DNA from: Polyangiales bacterium
GTDB taxonomy: Bacteria > Myxococcota_A > Polyangia > Polyangiales > Houyiibacteriaceae
DNA length: 31,457 bases
Reading direction: 5' to 3'
NCBI GenBank assembly: GCA_045106895.1
Contig: JBGCFM010000192.1
Location: 1-31,457, forward strand
Below are positions 1 through 19,669 of the stretch, one piece after another. A model generated the notes under the pieces. It was not told the origin of the DNA. It searched no databases and was given only the letters and a program-made list of their open reading frames with translations. The position numbers and the translations under genes were made by a program. Position 1 is the first letter of the stretch, and each line of letters starts with the position of its first letter.

Positions 1-3
1 ACC

Positions 4-918
4 TTACCCGTCAACGCCATCTGGCGTGATGTCTTTGCGAACTCGCTGGAGTCGCCACAGATTGGCGTCCACGGCACGCCAAGGATCCATCGCGCCACGG
101 CTGATGAGATCGAACATCATCAAGGGCTCGCCGCCTTCGACTTTGACGCGTGGGAGCGAGATGGGATCGTGCGATGCGCCAATGGAGCCATGCATCGAGT
201 TGAAGGCGATGTCGTAGCCAGCGTCGGCGACCGCACGGTCCGTCGCCGGGGAGAAGTCGGAGCGTGTCCCATAGGGATACGCGAAGGACGCGACGGTCTC
301 ACCAAGGATATCCTCAAGCTCGTCCTTGGAACGCTTCGCCTCGTCGCGGGCCTCATCGAGCTTCATAAGACCGAGGGAGCGATGGGTACGCGCGTGAGCG
401 CCAATCTCGACGAGGTCGCTCGAGGCCAACTCGCGAAGCTCATCGGCGCTCATGAAGCGTTCGACGAGGCCTTCAAAGTCGCCACCTACGAGGCTTGAAG
501 TCACGTAGAAGACCGCCGGCACGCCCCATCGGCGCAAGATCGGCAGCGCTTCGGTGAGGTTCGAGATGTTCCCATCGTCGAGGGTGACGATGCACGCGTC
601 TTCCGGCACTGTGCCTGTGCCCGCGACGAAGTCCTGAACTTGGGCCAGAGACACAGCGCGCCGCTCTTCAGCGAGGAGGCGTACCTGAGCTTCGAAGTCG
701 TCGCGGTGGACGCAAAAGGGGTCGTTGGGCACGTCGCCAACGCGGTGGTAGGTCAACGCGCGAACGCGAGGGCCGCGTCGCAAGAGGCGTGATGCTCCGA
801 GCAAGCCCGAAGCCCACGTTCCATAGGCGACGCCGCCGCGAGCAGCCTTCTTCACATACCAGCGTGCACCGGGCCGGGACTCGTCTGTCGCTTCCTCGTC
901 ATCACGTCGTTCGCTCAT
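4..918 (-). CDS. Polysaccharide deacetylase (CE4/NodB homology)
   Basis: Motifs LTYHRV, TLDDG, HARTH (HxxxH metal ligands) and FAYPYG; ATGA overlap with the upstream adenylation gene. Confidence 0.9.
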   Translation of the reverse strand: MSERRDDEEATDESRPGARWYVKKAARGGVAYGTWASGLLGASRLLRRGPRVRALTYHRVGDVPNDPFCVHRDDFEAQVRLLAEERRAVSLAQVQDFVAGTGTVPEDACIVTLDDGNISNLTEALPILRRWGVPAVFYVTSSLVGGDFEGLVERFMSADELRELASSDLVEIGAHARTHRSLGLMKLDEARDEAKRSKDELEDILGETVASFAYPYGTRSDFSPATDRAVADAGYDIAFNSMHGSIGASHDPISLPRVKVEGGEPLMMFDLISRGAMDPWRAVDANLWRLQRVRKDITPDGVDG

Positions 919-2516
919 TTGGCTTCTCCTTCAAGCATCGCCTGCAACGCCTTACGGTCCGTCTTGCCGTTCGCATTAAGAGGGAATGTGTCGATCTGAA
1001 TGACGCGCGACGGTTGCATATAGGCCGGAAGAAACGCCTTCACGTCCTGTTGGATAAGCGCCACGTCTTTGTCCGATGGACTCACAAAACCAACGATTCC
1101 GTCGGCGCCGCTCGCGCTGAGAGGCCAACCGATCGCGATGGCGACATCCGCGCCGCTCTCGCTCCGTAGTACCGCCTCAATCTCGCCGAGTTCCACGCGG
1201 TAGCCCATGATCTTGATCTGGTTGTCGACGCGCCCGAGGTAAATCAGGGGGCCGTCTTTGAGCTGCCTGACGCGGTCGCCGGTCCGGTAATAGATGCAGT
1301 CTTCTCCCGGCGGCACGACGAACACTTTGTCCGTGCGGGCTTGGTCTTCCCAATACCCCAGAGCGACCTGAGGGCCCGTCAGCAAAAGCTCGCCATCCGT
1401 ACCGGTGGGCACTTCGTTTCCTTCGGCGTCGGAGACACGAACGATCATGTTCGGATAAGGCACGCCGATGGGCACAACGCCGTGGAGCGCTTCGGCCTTG
1501 GACGCCTCCCCTTGCCACCGGTAGAGGGTGCAGGCGATGGTCAGCTCGGTAGGCCCGTAGAGGTTCTCCACGATGGCGTTTGGCGTGGCAGCGGCGAAAC
1601 GTTCGGTAATGTCGACGGGCAGAGCCTCACCGCAGAAGAGCGTCCAACGTAGAGTGGGGTAGGCGTCTGGTTTCAACATGCGCAGCTTGCTCATGAGCAC
1701 GCCCGTCGAAGGAACGCTGAACCAAACCGTGAGCTCTTGCTTCTTGACGTACTTGCCCGGGAAGAGCTTCTGTTGAGCCGTCGGAACGCAGAGACAAGCG
1801 CCACACGCCCACGCACAAAACATGTCGAAGGCGCTCAGGTCGAAGGTCAGGTCGAAGGTCTGCGAGAAACGATCGTTCTCGTCAAAGCCGTAGCGCTCGA
1901 CCATCGAATGAACGAAGGCCACCACGTTGCGCTGAGCGACCATGACACCCTTGGGTGTACCGGTGCTGCCGCTGGTGAAGAGAAGGTAGACGAGGTCGTC
2001 TGGGCTGACGGGCCCCAGCATGTACCCGTCCCCATCTTCGAGCCCCGCAGCCCCGATGAAATGATGCCGAGGGAACGCTGCACTGAGCGCAGCGACGTCT
2101 TCGGCGTCGGGAAGCACAACGACAAGCTCGGTCGCGATGCCCGTCAACAACTCTTCAAGTTTGCCTTCGCCCGTCTTGTCGACGACCAGCGCGCGGCAGT
2201 GCGAGCGCTCAAGCATGACGCGAGACCGGTCGATGGGAAACGCCGGGTTAAGTGGCACGTATCCGTGGCCCTCGTAGAGAACGCCGAGGATGCCCGCGAA
2301 GGCGCTCGGTGCCCGATGCCCAAAGACGGCGCTGAGACGATGTTCGCCGGAGGGGGCCGGCGCGTGCTTTCGAAGCGTCGCTCCGATGCGTCGCGCTCTC
2401 TCGTCGAGTTCAGAGTAGGTGAGGGACTCTTTGCCAATGGACAAAGCCGGACGCGTGGGGTGAGCTTCACGCGAACGGAGAAAGCCGTCTCGCACTGTTT
2501 CTGTTGTGGCCGTCAC
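915..2516 (-). CDS. Stand-alone amino-acid adenylation enzyme (DltA-like carrier-protein ligase)
   Basis: A-domain cores YLLFTSGSTGTPKGV, FDLS, FCGEAL, NLYGPTE, YRTGD, GRVDNQIKIMGYRVELGEIE and PLNANGKTDRKAL; no C or T domain. Confidence 0.9.
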   Translation of the reverse strand: MTATTETVRDGFLRSREAHPTRPALSIGKESLTYSELDERARRIGATLRKHAPAPSGEHRLSAVFGHRAPSAFAGILGVLYEGHGYVPLNPAFPIDRSRVMLERSHCRALVVDKTGEGKLEELLTGIATELVVVLPDAEDVAALSAAFPRHHFIGAAGLEDGDGYMLGPVSPDDLVYLLFTSGSTGTPKGVMVAQRNVVAFVHSMVERYGFDENDRFSQTFDLTFDLSAFDMFCAWACGACLCVPTAQQKLFPGKYVKKQELTVWFSVPSTGVLMSKLRMLKPDAYPTLRWTLFCGEALPVDITERFAAATPNAIVENLYGPTELTIACTLYRWQGEASKAEALHGVVPIGVPYPNMIVRVSDAEGNEVPTGTDGELLLTGPQVALGYWEDQARTDKVFVVPPGEDCIYYRTGDRVRQLKDGPLIYLGRVDNQIKIMGYRVELGEIEAVLRSESGADVAIAIGWPLSASGADGIVGFVSPSDKDVALIQQDVKAFLPAYMQPSRVIQIDTFPLNANGKTDRKALQAMLEGEAK

Positions 2517-2770
2517 GCGGCGAGTGTAGCGAAAAACCCCGCCCAGAGTGTGTTGATGCTCGTGAACACCTCTGGCTCGATCTCATCGGTATCGACCTCT
2601 TCTTCACGAAGCTCTTCGATGTAGAGGACGAACTCGACGATATCCAAAGAGTTGAGCAAGCCCACCTCAAGAATTGGAAGGTCGTCGGTGAGAGCGTCCT
2701 TTTCCATGGGCGCCTGACTGTGCTCAAGGAGCCAGTCTTTGAGCTGATTTCGCACTTCCGCTTCGTTCAT
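2513..2770 (-). CDS. Acyl/aminoacyl carrier protein (DltC-like)
   Basis: 85 aa, acidic, GLLNSLDIVEFVLYIEE around the phosphopantetheine Ser; GTGA overlap with the adenylation gene. Confidence 0.85.
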   Translation of the reverse strand: MNEAEVRNQLKDWLLEHSQAPMEKDALTDDLPILEVGLLNSLDIVEFVLYIEELREEEVDTDEIEPEVFTSINTLWAGFFATLAA

Positions 2771-3185
2771 ATCGTCTCACTGGCCAAGGGCCGAAAAGTC
2801 GGCGAGACAATACGCAGTTGGCGTCTGGGCGCAAGGGAAGAGACGCCCGCCGTCGGGGTCGTGACGGGAAGGGCTTGACGGACACTCCCCGCGTCGCCGT
2901 CGACACTGGCTTTTAGGGCGTGTTTGTGCTAGAGTTCACTCTCTGGCGACGAGATCCTGTCTTAATCGTGCTGACGCACGCGACGGTGATTCCAGGTCAG
3001 GCCACATAGCCAGGTTCGAACGCAAAGCGTCGTCTGCCGACGCTCTCTGCAGCGCGTGAAACGCACTTTTGAACCACGGCGAGCTCGCTTAGGCGGTCCC
3101 ACCCCTCAGCCAGCAAGTGTCAGCGCACGGTGCGCGGCACTTCTCGACCACTTACGCCCGGCCTTCGGACCGGAACGGAGAACCT

Positions 3186-4241
3186 GTGACCTCAACGAAC
3201 TCAAACACCAACGCTCCCGCCAACACCGACCTCGACATCATCGACGGCGCCACCTCGATGCACACCCTCTTCCGGCACACCCGCCGAGAGATGTGGGGGC
3301 TTGGAATCGTCCTCGCCCGCGACGATGACCGTGTGAAGATGCAGTTTCAGGATGGACGCACCCGCTCCTTCGCAAACGGCTACTACCACATGCTCGATGC
3401 CGTCGACCGCCCCCTCGACCTGACCCGCAGCGTGGTCAACGCACTCTGCTCGATGGTGGACGACGAAGCAGCGCCACGTGCCACGGGTCCGGAGCCGGTC
3501 AGCTTTGACGAACAGGTGCGCTTCTTTCAGGCAAAATACGCAGCCGGTTTCCACGACGCGGAGTACTCGGAGCGGCATCGAGGCGATGGGCGCAAGAAGC
3601 CTCTGAAGCGCCAGCGCGATGGGCTCGTTGAGAAGGCCCGAAAGCTACAGAAGCCGCAGATGTCCAAGTGGATGAAGGCTGGCGAGTTCGCAGAGATTCA
3701 CAAGGCCGCCAAGGGCGTGGCCAATGTCACGGACCTCGTCGCCGCAAAGGAGCGTAAGGCCTTCGCGGCGATCGGTGAAGAGCATCACGAGATGTTTGCT
3801 GCCAGCCTTCACGCTCTCCTTCACGGCACAAGCAAGCTCGTCGCGCGCATGGACGGTTTCATCCGCACGCTGACCACAGCCATGGGAACGGCTCCTAGCT
3901 GGGGCCTCGCATCTGTGTTCTTGGGCGCGACGCATCCCGAACAACACGTGGTCGTTCGCGGCAAGGTATTGGCACTGCAGTGCGCGTGGATGGCCCCCGG
4001 CCTGAGCGTCTCTGACAACCCCATGGGCATTCTCTACGAGCGACTCGCAAACATGACCAAGGATGTGAAGGCGCGGCTTGAAGAAGCCGGATTTGAGCCC
4101 CGAGACATGCTCGATGTAACGGACTTTATGTGGGCGACACTCCGCCCCATGGCGCAAAAAGAGATCATGAGGATGCGTCGGGCGACACCTCGTCTCTCCG
4201 CGACCGTCAGCGCGAACGAAAACCAAGAACAGGCCGCGTAA
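3186..4241 (+). CDS. Hypothetical protein; small N-terminal beta (DUF3553/SH3-like) domain plus a helical domain ending PRDMLDVTDFMW
   Basis: GTG at 3186 preceded by GGAG; open 351 aa; segment H..WGLGIV....DRVKMQFQDG resembles DUF3553-type domains (from recall). Confidence 0.7.
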   Translation: MTSTNSNTNAPANTDLDIIDGATSMHTLFRHTRREMWGLGIVLARDDDRVKMQFQDGRTRSFANGYYHMLDAVDRPLDLTRSVVNALCSMVDDEAAPRATGPEPVSFDEQVRFFQAKYAAGFHDAEYSERHRGDGRKKPLKRQRDGLVEKARKLQKPQMSKWMKAGEFAEIHKAAKGVANVTDLVAAKERKAFAAIGEEHHEMFAASLHALLHGTSKLVARMDGFIRTLTTAMGTAPSWGLASVFLGATHPEQHVVVRGKVLALQCAWMAPGLSVSDNPMGILYERLANMTKDVKARLEEAGFEPRDMLDVTDFMWATLRPMAQKEIMRMRRATPRLSATVSANENQEQAA

Positions 4242-4292
4242 GCCCGGCCGCTTCGCATCCCGCGAGGCTGACAAGGCTCAACTGGAAAAGGA

Positions 4293-4325
4293 AAAGGCTG
4301 AGATGGCAATGCCGTCTCAGCCTTT
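4293..4325. terminator. Probable bidirectional intrinsic terminator
   Basis: AAAGGCTGAGATGGC-AAT-GCCGTCTCAGCCTTT, a 15-bp stem with one G-U pair, between convergent genes; followed by TCCTTTTCC on the minus strand. Confidence 0.75.
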
Positions 4326-4370
4326 GTCGTTAGCGCGCGCTTCTTGAAGCGAGAGCGCGGCGGCTTTGAG

Positions 4371-5234
4371 CTAGAGAGCTGGCTCTTCTGTAAGGAGGTT
4401 GTTCTCAAGGAAGAAGTTCACGAGCTTCCGGCTCGCGCGTTCGCGGTGCTCCGCCGTCGCCGGGTGCGCGAGCGCAGCCTTACGAATCTTGTACGCACCT
4501 TCGAGTCCGGCGTCCTTGTACATGGTCGGGTTGTAGAAGTCGGCCCAGCTCGATTTGAGGTACTGAGCAAGCCACTTCTGAAAACCGGCGCGCAGTTCGT
4601 CGTCCCACTTCGGCAACCACTCCGCGGCAACTTCGGCAAGCCGGAGCCGACCGAAGGCGATGTGTCGCGACTCATCACGATGGTGGACATCGTTGAGGAG
4701 CGCGACGATGGGCTCGAGGCGTTTGTCCTTGGCCATCTTGATGTTGTAGTAGTCGCCAAGCTCTTCGACGACGAGGGCCTTGCAGAAGAACGCGACTTCT
4801 TCTTCGCCCTTGGCGTACTTTCGGTCGAGGGCAATCTTCTTCTCTGGGTACACCTTGCCGATGTACTTGTTGAGGAACATGCCAAACATGATCATGTGCT
4901 TGTTTTCCTCGTCGAGGAAATGATGCAGATACTCGGTGGATGATTCGTCCATCCGCTTGGAGTAGAGGCGGTCGCTCAGTCCGGCGACGAGTGGGCGCTC
5001 CCCCTGTAGCGTCAAGCTAAAGAAGTTCGCGCACTCGTACAGGCTCAGCTTGAGCCGCTGGTCTTCGTTGAGCGCATCCCAAGCTTCCGTGCCGAAGAGC
5101 GAGCATAGCTCCGGCGCCATGCACCACTTCTCACCGGACAAGGCCTCGGGCCAATCGAATCGATCGTAGACGTTCCAGAAACGGTCACGAGAGAGTTTGG
5201 TTAGTTTTTGGGCGACGGTTGAAGCGGTTCTCAT
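4371..5234 (-). CDS. AurF-like ferritin-fold diiron oxygenase
   Basis: Paired carboxylate/His motifs QGE...DEENKH and VEE...HHRDESRH with AurF-family spacing; 287 aa. Confidence 0.85.
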   Translation of the reverse strand: MRTASTVAQKLTKLSRDRFWNVYDRFDWPEALSGEKWCMAPELCSLFGTEAWDALNEDQRLKLSLYECANFFSLTLQGERPLVAGLSDRLYSKRMDESSTEYLHHFLDEENKHMIMFGMFLNKYIGKVYPEKKIALDRKYAKGEEEVAFFCKALVVEELGDYYNIKMAKDKRLEPIVALLNDVHHRDESRHIAFGRLRLAEVAAEWLPKWDDELRAGFQKWLAQYLKSSWADFYNPTMYKDAGLEGAYKIRKAALAHPATAEHRERASRKLVNFFLENNLLTEEPAL

Positions 5235-5310
5235 AGCTTCCTAACTATTGGTGCACTTTGGTGGGACGGCAAGACAGACCCGTGATCTCGGACACTGGTT
5301 TCGCGGGTCT

Positions 5311-6441
5311 TTAGAACATGGGCCCATGACCGTCGAAATTGGAGACAAAGAGGCCACGTTGGCTCTGGGTCCACGGCTCGAGCGCCGCCTGAAAGGCCGG
5401 ACTTGCACAGAATAGCCGACGTCCAGCGACGGAAACAAAGCCCTTGTCCTCAAAAGCGCTGATCCATCCAGCGTGGCTCTGGTTGGCGATGACCATGTCG
5501 GCGCCGTTTTCGCGCAGGTATTCGTACGCCGCGTGGATCACCTCGCCCGCGTCTTCCGGCAAAGCGAGGTAGTCGCCCACCTGACCCACATTGAGATTGC
5601 CGAAGCGGCCGTCGTCCTTCTTCTGCTTCTGCAAAACGACGGCCCAGCCTAACGTTTTCCCATTCTTGCGGATTCGCAGCCGCGTCGGCGGTGGCCATTC
5701 CAAAGTCTTGTGCTCCGCCGGGATCATGACGTTCATCGTCGCCGAATCTCGTACCGCGATAGCGTCGTAGCGCGGCGACACCTTCTCCCAGATCTCATCG
5801 GCCCAGGGCCCAAACTCACTCACGACTTCGGCTTCCGCCGAGAAGCGTTTTTTCGATTTGAGCCGGAGCGCCGCATGCAGGGAGCCCATCGCGAGATCTC
5901 CGAGACCACTCTTCGCCAGAACATCCTGGGCAAAGGCCCGCTTCGCGTCTTTTCGGAGTTCTCCGTTGTGAAGCAAGAAGTTCTTTCCGTTGCAGATGCG
6001 AAACAAGAACGGCGTGGGATGCATGAGCCAGCCCATTTTCGCCAATAGCTTAACGATCGGCTCGTCGTTTCCACCGTGCCCCCAGCTGTAGAGCATCGGG
6101 TACTTCTTGAGCATGTCTCGCAGTAGGCGAAGGCCGAGGACGGCGTACTTGGAATCGATCACACCGAGACTGATGGGACCTTGCCAGTCGGCGACCATTC
6201 CGGTCTTGCCATGGATGCACCACTCCTGAGGCTTCAGGGCGTACGCGCCGACACAGCGTGTCTCGTTCTCGATGGCGAGGAACATCTCCCGCCAGACCTT
6301 TTGGCCCTCACGTTTTGGGACCCAGATAGGTTCGGGATCGACGTAGAACCCCCAAGGGGAGTCCGCGTTGCGCAGCTCCGCGTTAAAGGTCTCAACGAGT
6401 GGCTTCATCTCTTCGCCGTGCCCGACGATCTTCGTTCCCAT
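5311..6441 (-). CDS. GNAT/FemAB-like acyl- or aminoacyl-transferase (putative)
   Basis: Start moved to ATG 6441 to avoid overlap with the divergent gene; two GNAT-like halves (CVGAYAL...LGLRLL; LGWAVV...VGDYLA); same strand as and directly upstream of the AurF-like gene. Confidence 0.55.
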   Translation of the reverse strand: MGTKIVGHGEEMKPLVETFNAELRNADSPWGFYVDPEPIWVPKREGQKVWREMFLAIENETRCVGAYALKPQEWCIHGKTGMVADWQGPISLGVIDSKYAVLGLRLLRDMLKKYPMLYSWGHGGNDEPIVKLLAKMGWLMHPTPFLFRICNGKNFLLHNGELRKDAKRAFAQDVLAKSGLGDLAMGSLHAALRLKSKKRFSAEAEVVSEFGPWADEIWEKVSPRYDAIAVRDSATMNVMIPAEHKTLEWPPPTRLRIRKNGKTLGWAVVLQKQKKDDGRFGNLNVGQVGDYLALPEDAGEVIHAAYEYLRENGADMVIANQSHAGWISAFEDKGFVSVAGRRLFCASPAFQAALEPWTQSQRGLFVSNFDGHGPMF

Positions 6442-6449
6442 GGGGCGGG

Positions 6450-6500
6450 AGTATGCCACACCGTTCTGTGTTTGCGACGGTGGGGCTTTCTGGGGATAAT
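6450..6500. promoter_or_regulatory. Back-to-back sigma70-like promoters
   Basis: Plus strand: TTGCGA(6472-6477)-17 bp-GATAAT(6495-6500), 7 nt before ATG 6508. Minus strand: TGG-CATACT extended -10, 8 nt before ATG 6441. Confidence 0.55.
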
Positions 6501-6507
6501 CACGCCG

Positions 6508-7323
6508 ATGATCAAGCCAATCGAATATGAGCGGGAAGCGCTCCGCGATGCTTTTCGCGACGCCACTCCCTTTCCCCACGTCTCCATGGACCCCTTTCTT
6601 CCGGAAGCGACGGCGGACGCGCTTGCTGGCGCGTTTCCTTCATTCGACCAGGCGAGCAAGGTCGGCAAACAGTTTACGGCTGTGAACGAGCTGCGGAAGA
6701 TCCAGATCACAGACACGGAGGCGTTCTCTGGACCCATCGCGGAGCTCAATGATTTCCTGGCGAGCCCTGAGTACCTCAAGGAGCTTGAGTTCATCACCGG
6801 GATTCCAAACCTCTTGGCCGATCCAACCCTCGCGGGTGGCGGAATACACATGACGGGATCCCGGGGCCGCCTCGATGTGCACGTTGACTTCAACTACCTC
6901 GAAGAAGCGAAGCTTTACCGCCGTCTAAACCTCCTCCTCTATCTCAACCCGGTGTGGGAGCGAAGCTGGGGTGGCGCCGTCGAACTCTGGGACGAGAAGG
7001 TCTCGACGCTCCACCACTCGTTCGAACCGAAGCTGAATCGCTGCGTTCTCTTCGAGACAAGCCAGCGGAGCTATCACGGCGTAGAAGAGGTTCGCTGTCC
7101 CCCCGACATGACGCGAAACTCTTTCGCCGTTTATTACTACACGAAGGAGCCGCCGCCGGACTACCCAGGCTACAACCACACCACCCGCTTCCGCGCGCGC
7201 CCCGACGAGCCGCTCAAGAAGTACGTTCTGATGCCTGCGGAGAAAGCGAAGATCGCCGTCAAAAAGGGACGCGAAAAGGCGAACCGCGCCAAGGACAAGG
7301 TAAAGAAGCTTCTCGGCCGCTGA
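6508..7323 (+). CDS. 2OG-Fe(II) oxygenase (prolyl-hydroxylase-like)
   Basis: GGGIH...LDVHVDFN (HxD), RRLNLLLYLN, GGAVELWD, SYHG and RNSFAVYYY; start at ATG 6508. Confidence 0.9.
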   Translation: MIKPIEYEREALRDAFRDATPFPHVSMDPFLPEATADALAGAFPSFDQASKVGKQFTAVNELRKIQITDTEAFSGPIAELNDFLASPEYLKELEFITGIPNLLADPTLAGGGIHMTGSRGRLDVHVDFNYLEEAKLYRRLNLLLYLNPVWERSWGGAVELWDEKVSTLHHSFEPKLNRCVLFETSQRSYHGVEEVRCPPDMTRNSFAVYYYTKEPPPDYPGYNHTTRFRARPDEPLKKYVLMPAEKAKIAVKKGREKANRAKDKVKKLLGR

Positions 7324-7338
7324 ACTCGGTCACAGCTC

Positions 7339-7450
7339 AAGAACGGGGCATTGACCTCGGCTTCTATGAAACCTCATCGCCTGGATGAGGCGCCGTAGAG
7401 CTGAGATCAGGGCCCCGTCTTCAATTCGGCGCGGTGAAACCACCGCTCCG
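7339..7450. other. Long imperfect hairpin (about 83 nt) followed by a second short hairpin
   Basis: 7339-7378 pairs with 7384-7421 (CCTCATC/GATGAGG core, ACGGGGC/GCCCCGT base); GCGGTG-AAAC-CACCGC at 7431-7446. Confidence 0.6.
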
Positions 7451-7475
7451 AGAATCGCAGATTTCACGGACCGCC

Positions 7476-7519
7476 TTGATCTCAACGCGTCCAACGTTCA
7501 TTATCAGTCGAGTGATAAT
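7476..7519 (+). promoter_or_regulatory. Promoter with overlapping palindromic operator (likely for the downstream TetR)
   Basis: TTGATC-17 bp-CATTAT; 20-bp palindrome ATTATCAGTCGAGTGATAAT (7500-7519, one mismatched pair) ending 4 nt before the start codon. Confidence 0.65.
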
Positions 7520-7523
7520 AAAC

Positions 7524-8474
7524 ATGAAACGAGGTTGGATCATGGTTCTAAGCCTCCTGGGGTGCATGAGCGCCGAAGTGGAGACCCAAGACGGGGTGTT
7601 TCAAGGAGTTGTGGAGTTTGATGAACGCCGACTCGCCTTTGAACGCCCTGGCCGCGTGGACCAGATGCTGGTGGCCGAAACCGAGGAGGTGGAGGCAGGA
7701 CAGCTCCTCGCCACGCTGGACACGGATCTGGCGGAGCTCGAACGCGATATGCGCGCTGCTCAACTTGAAGCCGCCCAGGCAAAGCTCGCCCTCATCGCCG
7801 CAGGTGCGCGCTCGAGCGATGTTCGCGCCCTCGCGTCGGAGCTTCGAGCAGCGCGCGCGAGCGTGGAGACCCTCGAAGACGACCTGGCGCGCAACGAGAG
7901 CCTCCAGAACACCGGCGCGGTTCCCGCGGCGCAAGTCGATCGACTTCGTGGCGAAGTCGAGCGAGCTCGGGGCGTCGCCGGCGCCGTCGCATCCCGCCTC
8001 ACCTCGCTGCGCTCGGGTCCACGAAGCGAGGAACTCTCCATCGCAGCCGCGCAGGTCGAAGCAGCAGATGTTGCCGTTCGCGTCGCAGAGCGAAGCCTCG
8101 AGCAGTTTGCGTTGCTCGCGCCGGTCGACGCGCAGGTCCTAAGTGTGGACTCGGAGCCGGGCGAAGTCGCGGCAGCGGGCCGCGTCGCCATGGTGCTGTC
8201 ACTTCGCGACCGACCCTTTGTCGATGTCTTCGTGCCACAAAACCGGGTGCGCGATGTACGTGCCGGCGGCTCCGTAGAGATCCGTGTGGACTCAAGCGAG
8301 AGCGTGCTCCGCGGCACCATCGAGCAGATCGGAAGCGAGCTTGAGTACACGCCACGCTTTCTGTTCAGCGAGAGCGAGCGGCCCAACCTGGTGCTCCGCG
8401 TCCGCGTGCGCGTCGAAGACCCGGAGCATGTTCTACTCGCCGGCGTACCTGCGTTCGTGACGATGGTTCCGTGA
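7524..8474 (+). CDS. HlyD-family membrane fusion (periplasmic adaptor) protein, YbhG-like
   Basis: Signal/lipobox-like N-terminus (LSLLGC), GRV...V..GQLLA.LD lipoyl half, coiled coil, LAPVD, EYTPRF. Confidence 0.85.
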   Translation: MKRGWIMVLSLLGCMSAEVETQDGVFQGVVEFDERRLAFERPGRVDQMLVAETEEVEAGQLLATLDTDLAELERDMRAAQLEAAQAKLALIAAGARSSDVRALASELRAARASVETLEDDLARNESLQNTGAVPAAQVDRLRGEVERARGVAGAVASRLTSLRSGPRSEELSIAAAQVEAADVAVRVAERSLEQFALLAPVDAQVLSVDSEPGEVAAAGRVAMVLSLRDRPFVDVFVPQNRVRDVRAGGSVEIRVDSSESVLRGTIEQIGSELEYTPRFLFSESERPNLVLRVRVRVEDPEHVLLAGVPAFVTMVP

Positions 8475-9442
8475 TGGACGCCTCGGAGCCGATCATCGAG
8501 GCTGAGAACCTAGGGCGGCGTTTCGGGTCCATCGTGGCGGTTCGAGACGTGTCGCTGCAGGTGGAGCGAGGGGAAATCTATGGGGTCCTCGGCGCAAACG
8601 GCGCCGGCAAGAGCACGACGATTCGTATGCTCTGCGGAATCCTCGACCCGACGAGTGGGAGCGCGCGCGTGGTTGGCCATGACGTCTCGAAAGACCCCGA
8701 GGCCGTCAAGCGAAGCATCGGCTACATGACGCAGCGCTTCAGCCTCTATGAAGACCTCACGATTCAGGAGAACCTCAGTTTCTATGCCGGCATCTACGGT
8801 GTGGCCCGCAAGCAGCGAAAGGCGCGCATCGGAGAGATGTTGGAGCGCCTCGGCCTCGGCCCCCGACGAAACCAACTCGCGGGGACCCTCAGTGGTGGCT
8901 GGAAGCAACGCGTCGCCCTCGCCTGCGCCACGATTCATGCTCCCCCGCTGCTCTTCCTCGATGAGCCCACAGCTGGTGTTGACCCCATGTCGCGGCGCAG
9001 CTTCTGGGACCAGATACATCGCCTCGCTTCGGAAGGAACCACTGTGCTCGTCACGACGCACTACATGGACGAAGCGGAGCGATGTCACCGTCTGAGCTTC
9101 ATCTTTCGTGGCGCCGTACTCGAAGCGGGGACGCCGGCGGAGGTCGTCGAGCGGCGGCGCCTTGAGGTCGTCGAAGTGGAAGTCGATAGACCGGCCGATG
9201 CGCGGCGCGCCGCCGACGTACTTCGCGAACTAGACGGCGTGCGAGACGTCGCCCCCTTCGGGAAAGTGATGCGCGTCGCCACGCGAGACGTTCAGGATCC
9301 CGAGACGCTCTGCGAGTCCGGCCTACGCGCCCAGAGTATCCCCGCTTCGACAGCCATCCGAGCGCGCGTGACCGTCGAAGACGCCTTCGTGTCGATGGTG
9401 CGCGATGACGCTGAAGACAACGCCGAGGGGAGCGACACATGA
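8471..9442 (+). CDS. ABC transporter ATP-binding protein (YbhF/DrrA-like)
   Basis: Walker A GANGAGKST, signature LSGGWKQR, Walker B LFLDEPTAGVDP, TTHYMDEAE. Confidence 0.95.
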   Translation: MMDASEPIIEAENLGRRFGSIVAVRDVSLQVERGEIYGVLGANGAGKSTTIRMLCGILDPTSGSARVVGHDVSKDPEAVKRSIGYMTQRFSLYEDLTIQENLSFYAGIYGVARKQRKARIGEMLERLGLGPRRNQLAGTLSGGWKQRVALACATIHAPPLLFLDEPTAGVDPMSRRSFWDQIHRLASEGTTVLVTTHYMDEAERCHRLSFIFRGAVLEAGTPAEVVERRRLEVVEVEVDRPADARRAADVLRELDGVRDVAPFGKVMRVATRDVQDPETLCESGLRAQSIPASTAIRARVTVEDAFVSMVRDDAEDNAEGSDT

Positions 9443-10551: not shown

Positions 10552-10564
10552 GGTAGACAAGCCT

Positions 10565-11167
10565 GTGGCTCGTCCCCCCTCCGATATTCGAGCGCGTATC
10601 ATCACGAGCGCGCGCGGGGTCTTTCTTCGGAAAGGCGTCGATGGGGCGTCTCTCCGGCAGATTGCCAAAGACGCCGGCACCAATATCGGCATGGTCTATT
10701 ACTACTTCGAGACGAAGGACGAGCTTTTCCTTCAGGTCGTCGAAGACCGCTACGCTGGTGTCTTGGCGAAGCTTGAGGCGATCTTCGCGCGGGAGACTCC
10801 TTTCCTCGAACGAATGACCCTCGCCAGCGCCCAGGTTGGCGACCTCGAGGATGAAGAGTTCGAAGTGATGCGCATCGTCATGGGTGAGCTGGTGCGCTCG
10901 ACGCCGGAACGCAAGAAGCTTGTCATGGACCGCTTCAAGCAGGGCCATGTGGGGCTCCTATTCAGGGCGTTGACGGAGGCCTCAGGGGAGATCGACCCTC
11001 GGCACCCCGTGCCCGTCGCGTTGATCAGCATCGTCGGTGCGATGGTGCTTCCCCAGCTTCTGATGCGTATGGCTGGTGACGCGGCGCCCATCGCGTTGCC
11101 CGAACCCGCGGTCCTGGCGGAGTCCCTCGCGAACGTACTGCGACACGGTCTTCTCAAGGAAGAGTAG
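10565..11167 (+). CDS. TetR/AcrR family transcriptional regulator
   Basis: HTH SLRQIAKDAGTNIGMVYYYFETKDELF; last gene of the efflux operon. Confidence 0.93.
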   Translation: MARPPSDIRARIITSARGVFLRKGVDGASLRQIAKDAGTNIGMVYYYFETKDELFLQVVEDRYAGVLAKLEAIFARETPFLERMTLASAQVGDLEDEEFEVMRIVMGELVRSTPERKKLVMDRFKQGHVGLLFRALTEASGEIDPRHPVPVALISIVGAMVLPQLLMRMAGDAAPIALPEPAVLAESLANVLRHGLLKEE

Positions 11168-12884: not shown

Positions 12885-14444
12885 TCAGGCGTCAGGGTTC
12901 GCGGCGACGTAGGCGTCATGGGCGGCACGCCGCTCTCGTCGGGCGCGAAGTCGGTCACGAAGCAGCGGCCAAGCAAGCGGCACCCAGAACACCGTCACGA
13001 CGACGGCGACGAGGGCGCATCGCACCAGGATGTTCCAGTCCCAGATGCGCATGAAGTACTCGGCCGCGCCGCCGACTCCGCTGGAGAGCGCGACGAGGAA
13101 CGTGAAACGAAAGTCCTGGGCAAAACCGGACATGCCGATTCGCCGACTGGATGCAGCGGCGGCAAAGTAACGGACGACCTCGGAGGCCGCGAAGCCTGCG
13201 ATGGCGCCATGGAAGCCATACCCTCCGACTCCCTCCCCGAGCCAATACCCCAGCGGGATGAAGGCGCCCATGGCGAGGATCTTCATGAACGACGCGAGGC
13301 TGTTCCACTTTGGGACACCTGCTGCGAAGAGCGCGGCTTCGTAGGTCCGAGCGAGAATGAGCCACCAGCCGCCCATGGCGAGGAGCTGAACCTGCCAGCC
13401 AGCGGCGAAATAGTCGGCATCGTAGAGAAGGTCGATGGCTGTGGGCCCACCGGCCACGAGACCCGCGAAGGCCCAACCGGCGGCGATGAGCAGCGAGGAG
13501 CGGGTGCTCTCAAAGATCCCGTGGAAGTCGCCGTCGCGCTCGCGCACTTTGCTGTAGACAGGAAAGATGATCTGGGTGGTCAACTTGCCCAGCGCTTCGG
13601 CGGGCAACATCGCGATGTTCAGCGCGATGAAGTAGACGCCGAGTTCGTCGAGACTGACGATCTTTCCGAAGATGAGACGGTCGGACTGCGTCGCCACAAA
13701 GGTCAAAATGGTGCCCAGGAAGATCCAACGCCCGAAACGCACGAGCTCTGTGACGGCGGACTTGTCCCAAGCGAGGCGGTTCTTTTCGCCGGGCAGGTAG
13801 ACGTGCGTTAGCAGCGTCCGAGAGAACCCGGTCGTCAATGAACCTGCGACAAGCGCCATCACGGAAGGCGAAATGAGCGCCCAAGTGACCATGACGATTT
13901 GGCCCAGCAGTTGAGATCCGAAGATCATGATCTCAATACGCCCCAAGGACAGGTCGCGGTTGAGCGTGAAGATCCGCGTGGAGTTGAACCCCGCACAGAG
14001 CGCGTTGAGACCCACCAGCGGCAAAAGGTAAACCAGCGTCGGCTCGTCGTAGTATCCCGCCATGGGATACGCGAGCGCGCAGGCTGTGAGGTAGAGCAGA
14101 CCGCCACGCCCGACCTGCATGCTCCAAGCGGTGTTCACGAAGGCGCTATCGCGTCGGTCGTTCTGGATCAGGCTTGGGCCGATGCCCACATCGCTGAAGA
14201 GCTCAAGCCCAGTCAGCACAACCTGAATGAGACCCATGATGCCAAAGGCCTCAGGAAAGAGCAGTCGAGTAAGGATGAGGTTCCCGACAAGACGGAGGAC
14301 TTGGGAGCCGCCATACCCAAGGAGAACAAAGAGCGCTCCGCGCCGGGCTTTCGTTTCAACGCCTTCGCCCTCAGGCGCGGAAGTATCGGCGCCCTCTTCG
14401 GCCGGCTCTTCGTTCTTTTCTGTCTCGCTCACCGGTACCGTCAC
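12885..14444 (-). CDS. Wzx-type oligosaccharide flippase (polysaccharide biosynthesis protein)
   Basis: LILTRLLFPEAFG, SDVGIGPSLIQ, TAWSMQVGRG, QSDRLIFGK...LGVYFIA; many TM segments; GTG 14444 overlaps the upstream TGA (GTG 14432 is an alternative start). Confidence 0.88.
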   Translation of the reverse strand: MTVPVSETEKNEEPAEEGADTSAPEGEGVETKARRGALFVLLGYGGSQVLRLVGNLILTRLLFPEAFGIMGLIQVVLTGLELFSDVGIGPSLIQNDRRDSAFVNTAWSMQVGRGGLLYLTACALAYPMAGYYDEPTLVYLLPLVGLNALCAGFNSTRIFTLNRDLSLGRIEIMIFGSQLLGQIVMVTWALISPSVMALVAGSLTTGFSRTLLTHVYLPGEKNRLAWDKSAVTELVRFGRWIFLGTILTFVATQSDRLIFGKIVSLDELGVYFIALNIAMLPAEALGKLTTQIIFPVYSKVRERDGDFHGIFESTRSSLLIAAGWAFAGLVAGGPTAIDLLYDADYFAAGWQVQLLAMGGWWLILARTYEAALFAAGVPKWNSLASFMKILAMGAFIPLGYWLGEGVGGYGFHGAIAGFAASEVVRYFAAAASSRRIGMSGFAQDFRFTFLVALSSGVGGAAEYFMRIWDWNILVRCALVAVVVTVFWVPLAWPLLRDRLRARRERRAAHDAYVAANPDA

Positions 14445-15889
14445 TGTTCCGCGGGCACTTTGGGCGAACTGGCCTCGGGCGCCAAGGGCCTTTGCCCTCT
14501 GCGCCTCTTTTTCTTCTCTCGGCGCTCCGCTCTCTTTCTTTTCAGCATTCGCTCCTGTTCGATGGGGAGCCCCAGGGACAAGCCATGCAATGCCCCCGAC
14601 AAGAAGAGGGGCATGCAATTAAAGAGGCCATTTGGCAGTAGATCGACGGTCATCACGCTCCCCATGAGAGCGAGCGCCGCGAGGAGACGTCGATCGAGCT
14701 TCGACTTCAGCTTCCTCATCCGGAAGAAGAGCAATATGCACGGGATGGTCATCATGCCGTACATGCCTAGAAAGCCGACGGCGCCGCGGTTGCCGAGCTG
14801 AATGGTCCAGTCACCATCCGTAATCGAGAGGTCCTCGCCCGTGGTTGGGTCGAAGAGGCGGTTTCGGTCGTAGCCCCCCCAGCCAAAGATCGGCCGTTCG
14901 CGAGCGCGCTCCATGAGCTGAAACTCCTGGTCGAAACGGAACCAAAGAGAGAGCGCGCGCTCTTCGTTGAACCCCTCCGCGTACTCCACGAGCTCGTCCG
15001 CCGGGAACACATCTGTCCCACGCAAGATTGGGTAGAGCAGCGCCATGAGTGAGAAGAGCATCGGGACGATGATTCGAAAGCGCCGCGAGAAGAGAAGCAG
15101 CGGCCACAGCAGGATTCCGTAGATGACGGCGCCGGAACTCTTACAAGCAACGACCATCGCGGGCATCCAAACGACCGTCCACATCTTCGCGAGACCGGCG
15201 CGGTTTCGAGCGATGGCCATCATGCTGGATCCCAGCAGGTACATGGACACGGCCATACCGGTCTGCATGAAGATCATGGGGCGATAACCGCCGAAACGAA
15301 TGGACATGTTGAAGTCCATCTGGTGGAAGCCATACAGCGTCTTGTGCAGCTGCGGGCTCATTCGAATCTCAACGAGAGCGAGGAGCGTATAGAAGAGGCC
15401 TGTCGAGAGTAGGATGCGGGTCAGGTTGTGAAGATCGGCACGGTTGCGAACCATCGCGCGCCCGATGAAGAACGGTAGGTAGACCCCGAGCGTGTCCTTG
15501 ATGCTGCATGCAAACGCGTCGTAGAGCGTCAAGTTGGGTCGAACGACGGGACCCGTAACGAGGGCGTCGCCGTTCGTCAACGCCGTGCCTACGTTGCCGA
15601 CGAGCATGAAGATGAAGAGAATATCGATGCCGCGAAACGGCTTGGCGCTCTTGATTCGCCCGGGGCTCTTAACAATGCACGCGATGAGGCACCACAAAGC
15701 GGCCATCGAGGTCTTGTCGAGCGGCGGCAAAAGCGGCGGGTCGAAGGCGACGACCTCCGGCAGGTAATTGACCGAGAGCAGTATGGCCCAGATCGCGGCT
15801 TCGGCAGGCTTGAACCGTTTGAAGAGCCACGCCGTAACGGGTATCCAAAGGAAGAGCGCAAGCGTGGAGAAGATATTGGGACTGCCCAT
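14441..15889 (-). CDS. Wzy polymerase / O-antigen-ligase-like membrane protein
   Basis: Polytopic; RFGGYRP..F, CKSSGA, ERALSLWFRF...RPIFGWGGY loop; coupled to the flippase. Confidence 0.75.
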   Translation of the reverse strand: MGSPNIFSTLALFLWIPVTAWLFKRFKPAEAAIWAILLSVNYLPEVVAFDPPLLPPLDKTSMAALWCLIACIVKSPGRIKSAKPFRGIDILFIFMLVGNVGTALTNGDALVTGPVVRPNLTLYDAFACSIKDTLGVYLPFFIGRAMVRNRADLHNLTRILLSTGLFYTLLALVEIRMSPQLHKTLYGFHQMDFNMSIRFGGYRPMIFMQTGMAVSMYLLGSSMMAIARNRAGLAKMWTVVWMPAMVVACKSSGAVIYGILLWPLLLFSRRFRIIVPMLFSLMALLYPILRGTDVFPADELVEYAEGFNEERALSLWFRFDQEFQLMERARERPIFGWGGYDRNRLFDPTTGEDLSITDGDWTIQLGNRGAVGFLGMYGMMTIPCILLFFRMRKLKSKLDRRLLAALALMGSVMTVDLLPNGLFNCMPLFLSGALHGLSLGLPIEQERMLKRKRAERREKKKRRRGQRPLAPEASSPKVPAEQ

Positions 15890-18063: not shown

Positions 18064-18441
18064 ATGAGCGCAGACCCCCCCAAAAAGACCCCCATCGCTG
18101 GCCACATTCTTACGGCCCTCGTGGGCCTCGCCATGTGCGCCAGCGCCGGCGCCAAGATCGCCGGCGTTGAGGCCATCGTCGCGAACCTCACCTCCTACGG
18201 TCTCGCGGACTACGTTGTGCTCATTGGCGTCATCGAGCTCGTCAGTGCTGTACTTTTCGTGGTGCCAAAAACTTCGTCCGTAGGAGCCTTCCTCGTAACG
18301 GGCTACTTCGGCGGCGCCATCGTCGCTCATCTGACCATCGGCGACGTCGCCGGAATCGCCCCCGCCGTGGTTCTAGGGCTTCTTGCTTGGGGCGCGAACT
18401 ACCTTCGCAATCGCCAGATGTTTGAGTCGTTCTCGCGCTAG
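18064..18441 (+). CDS. DoxX family membrane protein
   Basis: 125 aa, four TMs, SAGAK...IGVIELV..VLF.VP...GYFGGAIVAH; AGGAG RBS. Confidence 0.85.
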   Translation: MSADPPKKTPIAGHILTALVGLAMCASAGAKIAGVEAIVANLTSYGLADYVVLIGVIELVSAVLFVVPKTSSVGAFLVTGYFGGAIVAHLTIGDVAGIAPAVVLGLLAWGANYLRNRQMFESFSR

Positions 18442-18457
18442 TGGTACCCCTAGCGCC

Positions 18458-19669
18458 ATGAGAATCGCCTACCTCGTCAACCAGTACCCCAAAGTCAGCC
18501 ACACCTTCATCCGGCGCGAGATACAAGCGCTTGAGTCCCTTGGTGTCGAGGTGGTGAGATACTCGGTGCGCCGCGTGGCGGAACCATTGGCCGACCCCGT
18601 CGACGTCGCCGAACAAGAGCAGACCCATGTGGTCCTTGATGGGGGCGCCCAGGTGTTGGCGGCTTCCATCGCAAAGATCGCGGCAACGCGACCGAGACTC
18701 TTCGCTCGCGCCTCCGCGATGGCGAGTCGCATCGGTCTCGGCTCCGAACGAGGCCTGGCCATTCATGGCGCGTACCTTGGCGAAGCGTGCCTACTCCTCG
18801 AGTGGATGCAGCGGGACAAGGTCGAGCACGTGCACGCGCACTTCGGCACAAACTCCGCCACCGTGGCCATGCTCGTCGAAGCCCTCGGCGGACCCGGATA
18901 CAGTTTCCACGTTCACGGCCCCGAAGAGTTCGACAAGCCTTTCCTGATCTCCCTTGGTGAGAAGGTGGAACGCAGCCGTTTCGTGTGCGCCATCAGCAGC
19001 TTTGGGCGCAGCCAGCTCTACCGCCGCGTCAAATACGAGCACTGGCCGAAGGTGGAGGTCGTTCGTTGCGGCGTCGACGAGAGTTTCCTCGATGGCTCCT
19101 CGGAGAGCACCCCACTTCCGGAGACCCCACGTCTCGTCAGCGTCGGGCGCCTGAGCGAGCAAAAGGGACAGATGCTCATGATCCAGGCCCTCGCTCAGCT
19201 AAAGCGGGAAGGCGTCGACTTTCACCTCACGCTCGTCGGCGATGGTGAGATGCGCGCGGAGATCGAAGCGGTCATCCGCAGCGAAGGACTCGACGAGCAC
19301 ATCACCATCACGGGCTGGGCCAGCGGACCTGAGGTCCGGCAGCACATCCTGGGCGCTCGGGCGATGATCTTGCCCAGCTTCGCTGAAGGGTTGCCCGTCG
19401 TTCTTATGGAATCCCTTGGACTCGGACGTCCCGCGCTCTCCACCTACGTCGCCGGTATTCCCGAGCTCATCGAGCCCGGCAAGAGCGGCTGGCTTGTCCC
19501 AGCGGGCAGTATTCCCGCATTGGTAGAAGGCATCCGCGAGGTCCTCGCGACTTCCACCGAAGATCTGACACGCATGGGTCAACATGGTCGTAAAGCAGTC
19601 CACGAACGACACGACTCGAAGACCAACGCGGCGATCCTCAAGGCGCTCCTCGACAAGTACGTGAGCTGA
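18458..19669 (+). CDS. GT4 glycosyltransferase (WcaL-like)
   Basis: MRIAYLVNQYPKVSHTFIRREI, HVHAHFG, VGRLSEQKG, EGLPVVLMES. Confidence 0.92.
   Translation: MRIAYLVNQYPKVSHTFIRREIQALESLGVEVVRYSVRRVAEPLADPVDVAEQEQTHVVLDGGAQVLAASIAKIAATRPRLFARASAMASRIGLGSERGLAIHGAYLGEACLLLEWMQRDKVEHVHAHFGTNSATVAMLVEALGGPGYSFHVHGPEEFDKPFLISLGEKVERSRFVCAISSFGRSQLYRRVKYEHWPKVEVVRCGVDESFLDGSSESTPLPETPRLVSVGRLSEQKGQMLMIQALAQLKREGVDFHLTLVGDGEMRAEIEAVIRSEGLDEHITITGWASGPEVRQHILGARAMILPSFAEGLPVVLMESLGLGRPALSTYVAGIPELIEPGKSGWLVPAGSIPALVEGIREVLATSTEDLTRMGQHGRKAVHERHDSKTNAAILKALLDKYVS

Follow-up and report, generated by a model that had tools for sequence, protein, structure and literature searches.

Organisation and Proposed Function of the Cassette

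What would a stand-alone amino-acid adenylation enzyme, a small carrier protein and an AurF-type diiron oxygenase do together in a polysaccharide locus? The question is raised by contig JBGCFM010000192.1 (C104) of a Polyangiales bacterium, the 31,457 bases of which were analysed whole and are called the window here; the assembly comprises 7.7 Mb in 288 contigs. A cassette on the minus strand of the window has the order tandem-GNAT protein, PF11583 oxygenase, carrier protein, adenylation (A) domain and CE4 deacetylase. According to the original prediction, the carrier receives an amino acid, the diiron enzyme oxidises it, and the GNAT-like protein passes it on to a sugar amine that the deacetylase has freed. 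The tests of co-occurrence and of the left flank did not refute this interpretation, which appears supported; the substrate amino acid, the site and type of the oxidation, its timing on the carrier and the acceptor are what we infer from the genes.

Our results suggest, with the arguments for and against in even balance, that the cassette serves carrier-protein-dependent tailoring in a polysaccharide pathway of the Wzx/Wzy type, which would place an oxidised aminoacyl group onto a sugar amine. The stand-alone A domain would activate glycine or alanine and load it as a thioester on the 85-aa carrier, and the PF11583 diiron oxygenase would oxidise the tethered aminoacyl group, most likely at the alpha-amine, to a hydroxylamino, oxime/nitroso or nitro group. 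The tandem-GNAT protein would then take the acyl group so modified off the phosphopantetheine arm of the carrier and attach it to a free sugar amine. The acceptor sugar would sit in a nucleotide- or lipid-linked repeat unit, and its amine would be exposed by the CE4 (or DUF2334) deacetylase in most loci. The gene evidence for this consists of the protein families and folds, the gene order across phyla, the glycan neighbourhood and the coupling of the oxygenase with the carrier.

The genes of the window were taken from a listing of open reading frames (ORFs) and from family scans with Pfam and NCBIfam. The ORFs of the carrier, the stand-alone A domain and the CE4 deacetylase were confirmed, and their predicted coupling was borne out by 4-base overlaps at both junctions (CE4/A domain at 915-918; A domain/carrier at 2513-2516). 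The CE4 polysaccharide deacetylase (304 aa; 4..918, minus strand; PF01522, E 2e-19) is the last gene before the contig end. Beside it lie the stand-alone amino-acid adenylation enzyme (533 aa; 915..2516, minus strand; PF00501, E 2.7e-71, and PF13193) and the small carrier protein (85 aa; 2513..2770, minus strand), which has the conserved Ser in a G-x-L-x-S-L-D motif. The predicted AurF-like gene does encode a ferritin-like diiron oxygenase of the AurF/CmlI/PvfB family (287 aa; 4371..5234, minus strand; PF11583, E 8.2e-42). Upstream of it on the same strand lies the gene of the tandem-GNAT-fold protein (376 aa; 5311..6441, minus strand), a member of an unnamed family and, by its predicted structure, a putative acyl/aminoacyl transferase. 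Divergent from the latter gene, the 2-oxoglutarate (2OG)-Fe(II) oxygenase (271 aa; 6508..7323, plus strand) was likewise recognised by its family, PF13640 (E 1.1e-18); its gene probably starts at 6508 and not at 6181.

Conservation of the Cassette in Glycan Loci

The oxygenase has 772 database relatives at E <= 1e-3. Among the 120 matches listed, identity is 60-99% and all carry PF11583; those with a name are called 'diiron oxygenase', and their sources are Sandaracinaceae, Rhizobacter, Piscinibacter and Planctomycetota. For the comparison of loci, one genome per species was scanned with the oxygenase, which gave 187 encoding stretches. The best 80 were taken with up to 10 kb of flank, and their genes were called by tblastn with the window proteins. 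An adequate flank, i.e., at least 1.3 kb upstream and at least 2.3 kb downstream, was present in 61 of the 80 loci.

The GNAT-like protein, the oxygenase, the carrier and the A domain were found in the window's order in 40 of the 61 adequately flanked loci. The carrier and the A domain were present in 46 of these 61, and the 376-aa GNAT-like protein in 44. The co-conservation that the original prediction implied was thus found, in this four-gene order and with glycan neighbours. The cassette loci come from metagenome-assembled genomes (MAGs) labelled as Myxococcota, Burkholderiales, Pseudomonadales, Planctomycetota and Spirochaetota, and in nearly all of them the carrier gene directly adjoins the oxygenase gene. 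The neighbouring families, obtained from ORF clusters with Pfam on the representatives, were GT2 and GT4 glycosyltransferases, WecG/TagA, Bac_transf, AsnB asparagine synthase, RmlA/B/C, DUF2334 and Wzx; in L002, L007 and L014, Wzx adjoins the 2OG/GNAT-like genes.

Partners within 10 kb were counted in the 36 loci that have the carrier and the A domain and at least 8 kb on both sides. A deacetylase-type gene was found in 27 of these well-flanked cassette loci (19 CE4, 8 DUF2334), and neither CE4 nor DUF2334 occurred in the loci without the cassette (0/9). A protein of the formyltransferase-A domain (luciferase-like monooxygenase)-thiolation type, F-A(LLM)-T, lies near the cassette in 8 of the 36. 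The 2OG oxygenase is accessory; it was present within 10 kb in 14 of the 46 cassette loci and in 9 of the 36 well-flanked ones, mostly in loci of Myxococcota.

Nine of the 61 loci had none of the GNAT-like protein, the carrier and the A domain, and in seven of these nine a luciferase-like monooxygenase gene stands beside the oxygenase. The oxygenase sequences were placed in a quick maximum-likelihood tree (IQ-TREE, 81 rows, with SH-aLRT support only). The monooxygenase-associated loci without the cassette formed one clade of 13 rows with an SH-aLRT of 100, and since this clade is nested among the cassette sequences of Sphaerotilaceae, it is a lineage-specific paralogue. In the same tree the window's oxygenase is sister to that of L001. 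This locus is the closest relative of the window, with an oxygenase that is 93% identical and the same gene order, including the insertion at 3117-4241.

The members of the Sphaerotilaceae paralogue clade (L031, L038, L042, L044, L045, L050, L054, L058, L060, L061 and L079) are without carrier and A domain. Their neighbours are a stand-alone luciferase-like monooxygenase, a 306-aa protein of no known family and a short-chain dehydrogenase/reductase. The monooxygenase shares ~50% identity with the domain that is built into the 1542-aa protein described below for the left flank.

The inserted gene (374 aa, no known family; 3117..4241, plus strand) lies between the carrier and oxygenase genes and divides the cassette into two units in the window. 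Because it was present in only 1 of the 80 related loci, L001, we regard it as an insertion outside the conserved cassette. Its product had no Pfam or NCBIfam match, and its atlas neighbours are hypothetical proteins of Myxococcota, a minority of which have DUF3553. A paralogue of this product, 30% identical, is encoded on contig C157.

The Diiron Oxygenase and Its Carrier Protein

The oxygenase matched PF11583 with 143.7 bits (cut-off 29.6) over profile positions 5-279 of 282, which the genome confirmed, and is thus a member of this family. Its AlphaFold2 model (pLDDT 91.6) showed a ferritin-like four-helix core nearest to that of AurF and CmlI. Ranks 1-8 of the Foldseek search were all CmlI or AurF (CmlI 5hyh, TM 0.67; AurF 2jcd, 0.66), and R2lox and the ribonucleotide reductase R2 came lower. 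Residues E67, E79, E109, E110, H113, E157, E158, H184, H185, E188 and H191 were invariant in 20 oxygenase sequences. Read from the sequence only, the candidate ligands are E110-x2-H113 and H184-x3-E188-x2-H191 together with E67/E79 and E157/E158. We take the AurF-type seven-ligand site with a third histidine to be E...ExxH...E...HxxxExxH.

PMC10724926 names AurF, CmlI, ObiL and PvfB as members of PF11583, and these characterised enzymes are N-oxygenases. HamC, a homologue of AurF, was described to oxidise valine tethered to the nonribosomal peptide synthetase (NRPS) HamD (PMC11659414).

Distant homologues of the oxygenase were found in 18 plasmid records (21-36% identical), and five of these, 31-36% identical, were examined. 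A carrier protein and/or an adenylating loader stood beside the oxygenase in all five. The loader was a class-II aminoacyl-tRNA synthetase (aaRS)-like protein, not an A domain, in two of the five, and a nitronate monooxygenase was present in three. On plasmid pTM2 of Tistrella mobilis (L107), the oxygenase is accompanied by an 84-aa carrier-like protein with 28% identity to the carrier of the window (E 9e-10), and the other genes there encode a class-II aaRS-core protein, a nitronate monooxygenase and a methyltransferase. An Agrobacterium vitis plasmid (L108) encodes an 86-aa protein, the oxygenase, a nitronate monooxygenase, an aaRS-core protein, a FlK-like thioesterase and a phosphopantetheinyl transferase (PPTase). 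A Streptomyces plasmid (L109) has the oxygenase, a phosphopantetheine-binding protein, a nitronate monooxygenase, a hydrolase, a PPTase and an AMP-binding protein. The Azospirillum plasmid encodes an A domain, an acyl carrier protein (ACP), a methyltransferase, the oxygenase, an NRPS and a polyketide synthase (PKS), and on the Nostoc plasmid an adenylation-domain protein adjoins the oxygenase. The oxygenase-carrier pair stays while the loader and the off-loading enzyme change. Since nitronate monooxygenases were present in three of the five loci, nitro or nitronate products are hinted at. The clusters of L107, L108 and L109 appear to represent a pathway, as yet uncharacterised, to a small molecule with a nitro or nitronate group.

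The prediction of an oxygenase-carrier complex gave a median ipSAE of 0.37 (runs of 0.37, 0.59 and 0.31), and the best of three controls gave 0.00. At least 90% of the contacts agreed between the runs, and the partner pLDDT was at least 82. Of 157 solved complexes, 116 reached the pass mark, as did 2 of 215 mismatched pairs; passes at 0.60 or below comprised only 18 of the 157 solved complexes and both of the passing mismatches. The modelled complex supports the pairing weakly.

A more specific proposal can be made. An amino sugar of the exopolysaccharide would carry, in amide linkage, a glycyl or alanyl group oxygenated on its nitrogen (hydroxylamino-, hydroxyimino- or nitro-acyl). The tandem-GNAT proteins would be a family that draws its donor from a carrier protein and not from CoA or tRNA, and the cassette would be one branch of a wider module of diiron oxygenase and small carrier that occurs with aaRS-like loaders and nitronate monooxygenases elsewhere. 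We put this forward tentatively and consider it rather doubtful as a whole.

The Adenylation Enzyme, Carrier Protein and Deacetylase

The A domain matched the amino-acid adenylation model TIGR01733 with 346 bits (cut-off 317). Its scores against the DltA models (E 8e-82) were 275 bits for TIGR01734 (cut-off 560) and 274 bits for NF003417 (cut-off 476). The closest relatives in the PDB were the second A domain of LgrA, which is presumably glycine-specific, and then the stand-alone enzymes VinM (8k4r), IdnL7 (6akd) and AlmE (4oxi). The match to AlmE covered residues 9-529 of the A domain (E 6.6e-75). According to a review, AlmE is specific for Gly and IdnL7 takes Gly, Ala and Ser, and the residues next to the C-alpha are Leu248 and Cys316 of AlmE (Leu198 and Cys268 of DltA). 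The window's A domain has Leu and Cys at these two AlmE positions (in FDLS and LFCGE), which have been linked to the selection of Gly or D-Ala, and keeps the Asp and Lys anchors. At motif-anchored positions, the pocket code was DLFSLCLIAK in 40 of 53 orthologues and DLHSLCLIAK in 8 of 53. Because the former code is shared by 40 of the 53, the substrate seems to be fixed across phyla, and it is predicted to be a small amino acid, Gly or L-/D-Ala.

In the carrier, S41 of the G-x-L-x-S-L-D motif was invariant in 21 orthologue sequences. The CE4 protein matched PF01522 with 70.2 bits (cut-off 23.1) and has the TLDDG, HARTH and YPYG motifs, so that both the family and its Asp-Asp and His-x3-His motifs for metal and base are present. 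The best NCBIfam matches of this deacetylase were the N-terminal domain of PgaB, IcaB and HfsH, all under the cut-off. No hydrophobic segment was found in the CE4 protein, the GNAT-like protein or the oxygenase, and for this reason the deacetylase is probably cytoplasmic.

The Tandem-GNAT Protein

The GNAT-like ORF runs from 5311 to 6579 on the minus strand, and alignment with its orthologues placed the true start at M47, which gives 5311-6441 and 376 aa. The protein had no match at E <= 0.01 in Pfam or NCBIfam, and the best hit of a PDB profile search (E 0.04) was an unrelated methyltransferase. Its family comprises 285 clusters; among the 120 listed, none has a Pfam domain and the sole name is 'hypothetical protein'. 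By sequence, the protein falls into no named GNAT, FemAB or N-myristoyltransferase (NMT) family, and its predicted GNAT nature was confirmed solely by the structure model. Sandaracinus amylolyticus and a Sphaerotilaceae isolate are cultured hosts of a homologue.

The AlphaFold2 model of the 376-aa protein (pLDDT 93.1, pTM 0.90) contains two GNAT-fold domains. In Foldseek the best matches were NMTs, with E of about 1e-10. Z-scores were obtained with VIA, an aligner independent of Foldseek, over residues 1-372 for NMT and MAB_4324. The highest score was that of NMT (8fbt; Z 18.6, root mean square deviation 4.7, 306 residues aligned), followed by Eis2 (15.8), the tandem GNAT MAB_4324 (15.3), glucosamine N-acetyltransferases (15.1 and 13.5), MshD (13.3), FemX (10.7) and MprF (9.6). 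The best whole-length matches (NMT, Eis, the glucosamine N-acetyltransferases and MshD) are amine N-acyltransferases that use pantetheine thioesters. From its modelled fold, the 376-aa protein is proposed to be an acyl/aminoacyl transferase.

In a reverse test, a profile of the 376-aa protein was run against 401 genomes of the phylum. Fifteen of the 401 had the GNAT-like family, the genome of the window among them, and none of 23 genomes from the same taxonomic family did, so that the system is accessory and patchy. The GNAT-like family can do without the oxygenase, which often accompanies it but need not, and this is the behaviour to be expected of a tailoring enzyme. Among the GNAT-like genes without an oxygenase in the stretch, L098 has a carrier directly downstream, L106 has two A domains, and L105 has DUF2334, Alg14 and an F-A-T protein. 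In L101 and L103, the GNAT-like gene occurs without a carrier, and a GT4, a methyltransferase, a GDSL protein and a 549-aa CE4 protein are nearby. As such oxygenase-less loci show other partners, the constant theme of the GNAT-like family is a glycan locus, usually with a deacetylase.

In L101, L103 and L104 (genomes G313, G258 and G293), no carrier, A domain or oxygenase was found within about 8 kb of the GNAT-like gene. The neighbours in these loci are a GT4, an S-adenosylmethionine-dependent methyltransferase, a GDSL-like protein, the 549-aa CE4 protein and an LpxL-type acyltransferase. These tandem-GNAT members may use an acyl-CoA donor.

Left Flank of the Cassette

The window ends 3 bases past the stop codon of the CE4 gene, and the original prediction would have been undermined by an NRPS with a condensation domain or by DltB just beyond this end. 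In L001, the CE4 gene is followed by an EpsU-like GT2 (NF041865, E 1.3e-79, under the cut-off), a 330-aa protein, an Alg13/Alg14-like pair and a Wzz-like gene. The best matches of the last three of these lie at one end of contig C196 of the window's assembly, in the matching orientation, and the GT2 had no tblastn match anywhere in this assembly. From these sequence matches, C196 is probably the neighbour of the window, with the GT2 in the gap between them. A start of the GT2 within the window was considered and rejected; the 25-residue match at 89-15 on the minus strand is the conserved 3' end of the CE4 gene read in another frame.

The left flank as judged from L001, with the GT2 after CE4, contains neither DltB nor a condensation domain, and the MBOAT and condensation domains of the genome are on other contigs. 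The only MBOAT protein (PF03062) is encoded on C251, where tblastn gave no A-domain match, and the two condensation domains (PF00668) lie inside C233 and C260, each beside its own A domains. The ORFs scanned in the window, in the flank of L001 and on C196 included no MBOAT protein or DltD and no condensation, thioesterase or reductase domain. For the window, this agrees with the predicted absence of DltB/DltD, condensation domain and thioesterase.

C196 encodes at 394-5022 on the plus strand (L081) a 1542-aa F-A(LLM)-T protein, which has N- and C-terminal formyltransferase domains, an interrupted A domain and a phosphopantetheine-binding domain. The interruption is a luciferase-like monooxygenase of the MupA/Atu3671 type (TIGR04020, above the cut-off). 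The gene lies between an SLBB-domain fragment, which is likely from an export protein, and the Wzz-like gene. Orthologues that are 42-49% identical, either full-length or truncated by the contig, were found within 10 kb of the cassette in nine other loci (L032, L033, L041, L062, L063, L069, L073, L077 and L080). The pocket residues of this protein look Gly-like. It suggests a second carrier-based step in the same glycan loci. The 1542-aa protein does not explain the A domain and carrier of the cassette, because it has its own A and thiolation domains and no condensation domain.

Comparison with Known Systems

DltA and DltC load D-Ala for cell-envelope polymers. The cassette resembles the Dlt system in having a stand-alone loader with a dedicated small carrier for the proposed decoration of an envelope polymer, and its A domain shares the FDLS and LFCGE pocket residues. 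In contrast to Dlt, the likely off-loader in the window is a cytoplasmic tandem GNAT instead of the MBOAT protein DltB, and a diiron oxygenase is added. AlmE/AlmF/AlmG, which attach glycine to the lipid A of Vibrio cholerae, also combine a DltA-like loader and a carrier in a Gram-negative envelope system, and the Leu and Cys pocket positions are shared with the window. Unlike Alm, the window has no AlmG-type acyltransferase of the LpxL family, its context is that of a Wzx-type polysaccharide, and nothing in Alm corresponds to the oxygenase or the tandem GNAT. Dlt and Alm are shared in the first two steps only, and membership in either system fails because neither DltB/DltD nor an AlmG-type enzyme is present. 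The original prediction had called the pathway Dlt-like; this description held for the loader and carrier pair only.

HamC and PvfB, with HamD and PvfC, likewise combine a PF11583 enzyme, an A domain and a carrier, with a tethered amino acid as the substrate (PMC11659414, PMC10724926). In those systems, the A domain and carrier belong to A-T-R NRPSs that lead to diffusible N-oxides or diazeniumdiolates, whereas the window's carrier is free-standing and has no reductase. Valine is used there, whereas Gly or Ala is predicted here in a glycan locus, and the likeness is one of description. A modular NRPS, i.e., condensation and thioesterase or reductase domains together with the A domain and carrier, was not found among the ORFs scanned.

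The tetronate sub-cluster of V. cholerae O1 also encodes ACP-like and AMP-ligase-like proteins. As in our proposal, a polysaccharide sub-cluster makes an unusual acyl group that is amide-linked to a sugar amine, in that case tetronate on perosamine (PMC3441752). In contrast to the window, the acid attached there is no amino acid, a diiron oxygenase is absent and the transferase is of an unrelated kind.

The tandem-GNAT transferases NMT, Eis, MshD and the glucosamine N-acetyltransferases, and more distantly FemX and MprF, share the two-GNAT fold with the 376-aa protein over its whole length. They move an acyl or aminoacyl group from a CoA thioester (from aminoacyl-tRNA in FemX and MprF) to an acceptor that is mostly an amine. 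They differ in having no detectable sequence similarity to the 376-aa protein, for which the proposed donor is an aminoacyl-carrier protein. Homologues of class-II aaRS reportedly load Gly or Ala on small carrier proteins, as Mocibob et al. are said to have described in 2010. Loci of such amino acid:[carrier protein] ligases are approached by Tistrella pTM2 and Agrobacterium vitis, which pair the 31-36% identical oxygenase with a homologous carrier and an aaRS-core-like protein. Unlike the window, they have a nitronate monooxygenase, a methyltransferase or thioesterase and a PPTase, contain no glycan genes and look like small-molecule pathways.

Evaluation of Alternative Explanations

Several observations weigh against the transfer of a carrier-bound, oxidised aminoacyl group to a sugar amine. 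In the structural alignment, the oxygenase is 14-15% identical to CmlI and AurF, and a PDB profile search with the oxygenase family found neither AurF nor CmlI at E <= 1. The weakness of the predicted oxygenase-carrier complex is counted here as well. The carrier had no match in Pfam, and its NCBIfam matches to ACP models were weak (best 24.8 bits). The top structural match of the transferase, NMT, acylates proteins, not sugars. In the 14 other genomes of the phylum with the GNAT-like family, the oxygenase was found within a flank of 1.5 to about 8 kb in 7. Neither CE4 nor DUF2334 lies within 10 kb in 9 of the 36 well-flanked cassette loci, and nearly all related loci, but for a few, come from MAGs. 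In the window itself, the cassette is split by the inserted gene, and 5.5 kb of efflux genes lie between it and Wzx.

Because the family profile misses AurF and CmlI and the identity to them is this low, the oxygenase branch is far from the studied enzymes, and its chemistry may differ, for example C-hydroxylation or desaturation. The glycan decoration would then be the same, and the diiron enzyme would do something other than N-oxygenation of a tethered amino acid, either by such chemistry or by acting after the transfer on the amide or the sugar, giving a hydroxamate or a glycolyl-type group. Such timing has a parallel in LitN, a PF11583-like protein proposed in PMC10616846 to oxygenate an amide after bond formation. 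It would also fit the occurrence of the GNAT-like family without the oxygenase, as for an optional tailoring step, and the weak complex prediction. However, the carrier gene abuts the oxygenase gene in nearly all cassette loci, and the distant homologues keep an adjoining carrier as the loader and off-loader change, with a nitronate monooxygenase in three of the five. The characterised PF11583 enzymes that PMC10724926 names are, moreover, N-oxygenases, and we consider this variant unlikely, though worth keeping in view.

The location among polysaccharide genes would be incidental if the cassette made a small, diffusible metabolite, for example an amino acid derivative that is N-oxygenated like the pvf and ham products. 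HamC/PvfB-type oxygenases do belong to small-molecule pathways, the distant plasmid homologues stand beside thioesterase or alpha/beta-hydrolase, methyltransferase, NRPS/PKS and transporter genes, and in the window an HlyD/ABC exporter adjoins the cassette. This exporter is, however, absent from the relatives (HlyD/ABC genes in 0/80 related loci), and among the ORFs scanned no reductase, thioesterase or condensation domain was found in or beside the cassette. Glycan genes surround the cassette again and again, in loci that are assigned to five phyla; a deacetylase is present in 27 of 36 loci, and carrier-less GNAT-like genes still lie in glycan loci with CE4. We consider a diffusible product improbable.

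An acceptor that is a lipid (cf. the AlmEFG glycine on lipid A and aminoacyl lipids) or a protein N-terminus (cf. NMT) would suit the resemblance of the A domain to AlmE, the NMT match of the transferase and the LpxL-type acyltransferase near one oxygenase-less GNAT-like gene, but it also has little probability in our estimation, since the ORFs scanned in the window included no LpxL/AlmG-type acyltransferase (PF03279), the genes conserved around the cassette are of the glycosyltransferase, sugar-nucleotide and deacetylase kinds, and the scores of glucosamine N-acetyltransferases and MshD come close to that of NMT.

Significance of the Proposed Cassette

Carrier-dependent aminoacylation of the envelope, as in Dlt and Alm, alters surface charge, resistance to antimicrobial peptides and phage adsorption. 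A full-text literature search found no paper describing the present cassette. If the proposed transfer of an oxidised aminoacyl group to a sugar amine is true, carrier-dependent aminoacylation reaches Wzx/Wzy polysaccharides of several Gram-negative phyla, and an oxidative tailoring step on the carrier and a new transferase family are added to it. If the oxidation falls on the nitrogen, it would be the first N-oxygenated glycan decoration, and an N-oxygenated or otherwise oxidised aminoacyl amide on a polysaccharide could give metal binding or redox reactivity. The proposal gives a testable function to the GNAT-like family of 285 clusters and to a conserved branch of the AurF family, which is 60-77% identical across phyla. 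It does the same for the long-unexplained pairing of small carrier proteins with Gly/Ala loaders. Since Sandaracinus amylolyticus is cultured and has a homologue, a knock-out study with polysaccharide analysis is feasible in this species.

Other Features of the Window

The original prediction also placed Wzx, Wzy and GT4 genes at some distance from the cassette. The Wzx-type flippase (12885..14618, minus strand; PF13440, E 2.7e-50) and the GT4 glycosyltransferase (18383..19669, plus strand; PF00534, E 1.7e-32) were confirmed by their families. The Wzy was not confirmed; the candidate is a polytopic membrane protein with 7 hydrophobic segments (14441..15889, minus strand), and it had no Pfam or NCBIfam match. 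Between the cassette and Wzx stand genes for an HlyD adaptor, an ABC ATPase, an ABC-2 permease, a TetR regulator and a Na+/H+ exchanger with a TrkA-N domain (7434-12821). None of these genes was present in the 80 related loci, so that the glycan locus seems to have taken up an efflux module unrelated to it.

A scan of positions 1-8000 of the window with Rfam at E <= 1 found no RNA family, such as a glycine riboswitch. The promoter scan gave 1 site against 1.3 expected, and the 14 terminator-like sites against 7.4 expected are not interpretable.

A 695-aa protein with a PPC (pre-peptidase C-terminal) domain and two proteins of no known family are encoded at 19716-25106, and a FecR-like protein and an extracytoplasmic function (ECF) sigma factor lie at 23155-25106 on the minus strand. 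At 28275-31457 on the plus strand, one ORF that is open at the contig end has Toprim and type IA topoisomerase domains in its N-terminal part and DEAD and Helicase_C domains in its C-terminal part. The domain order of reverse gyrase is the opposite of the order in this ORF.

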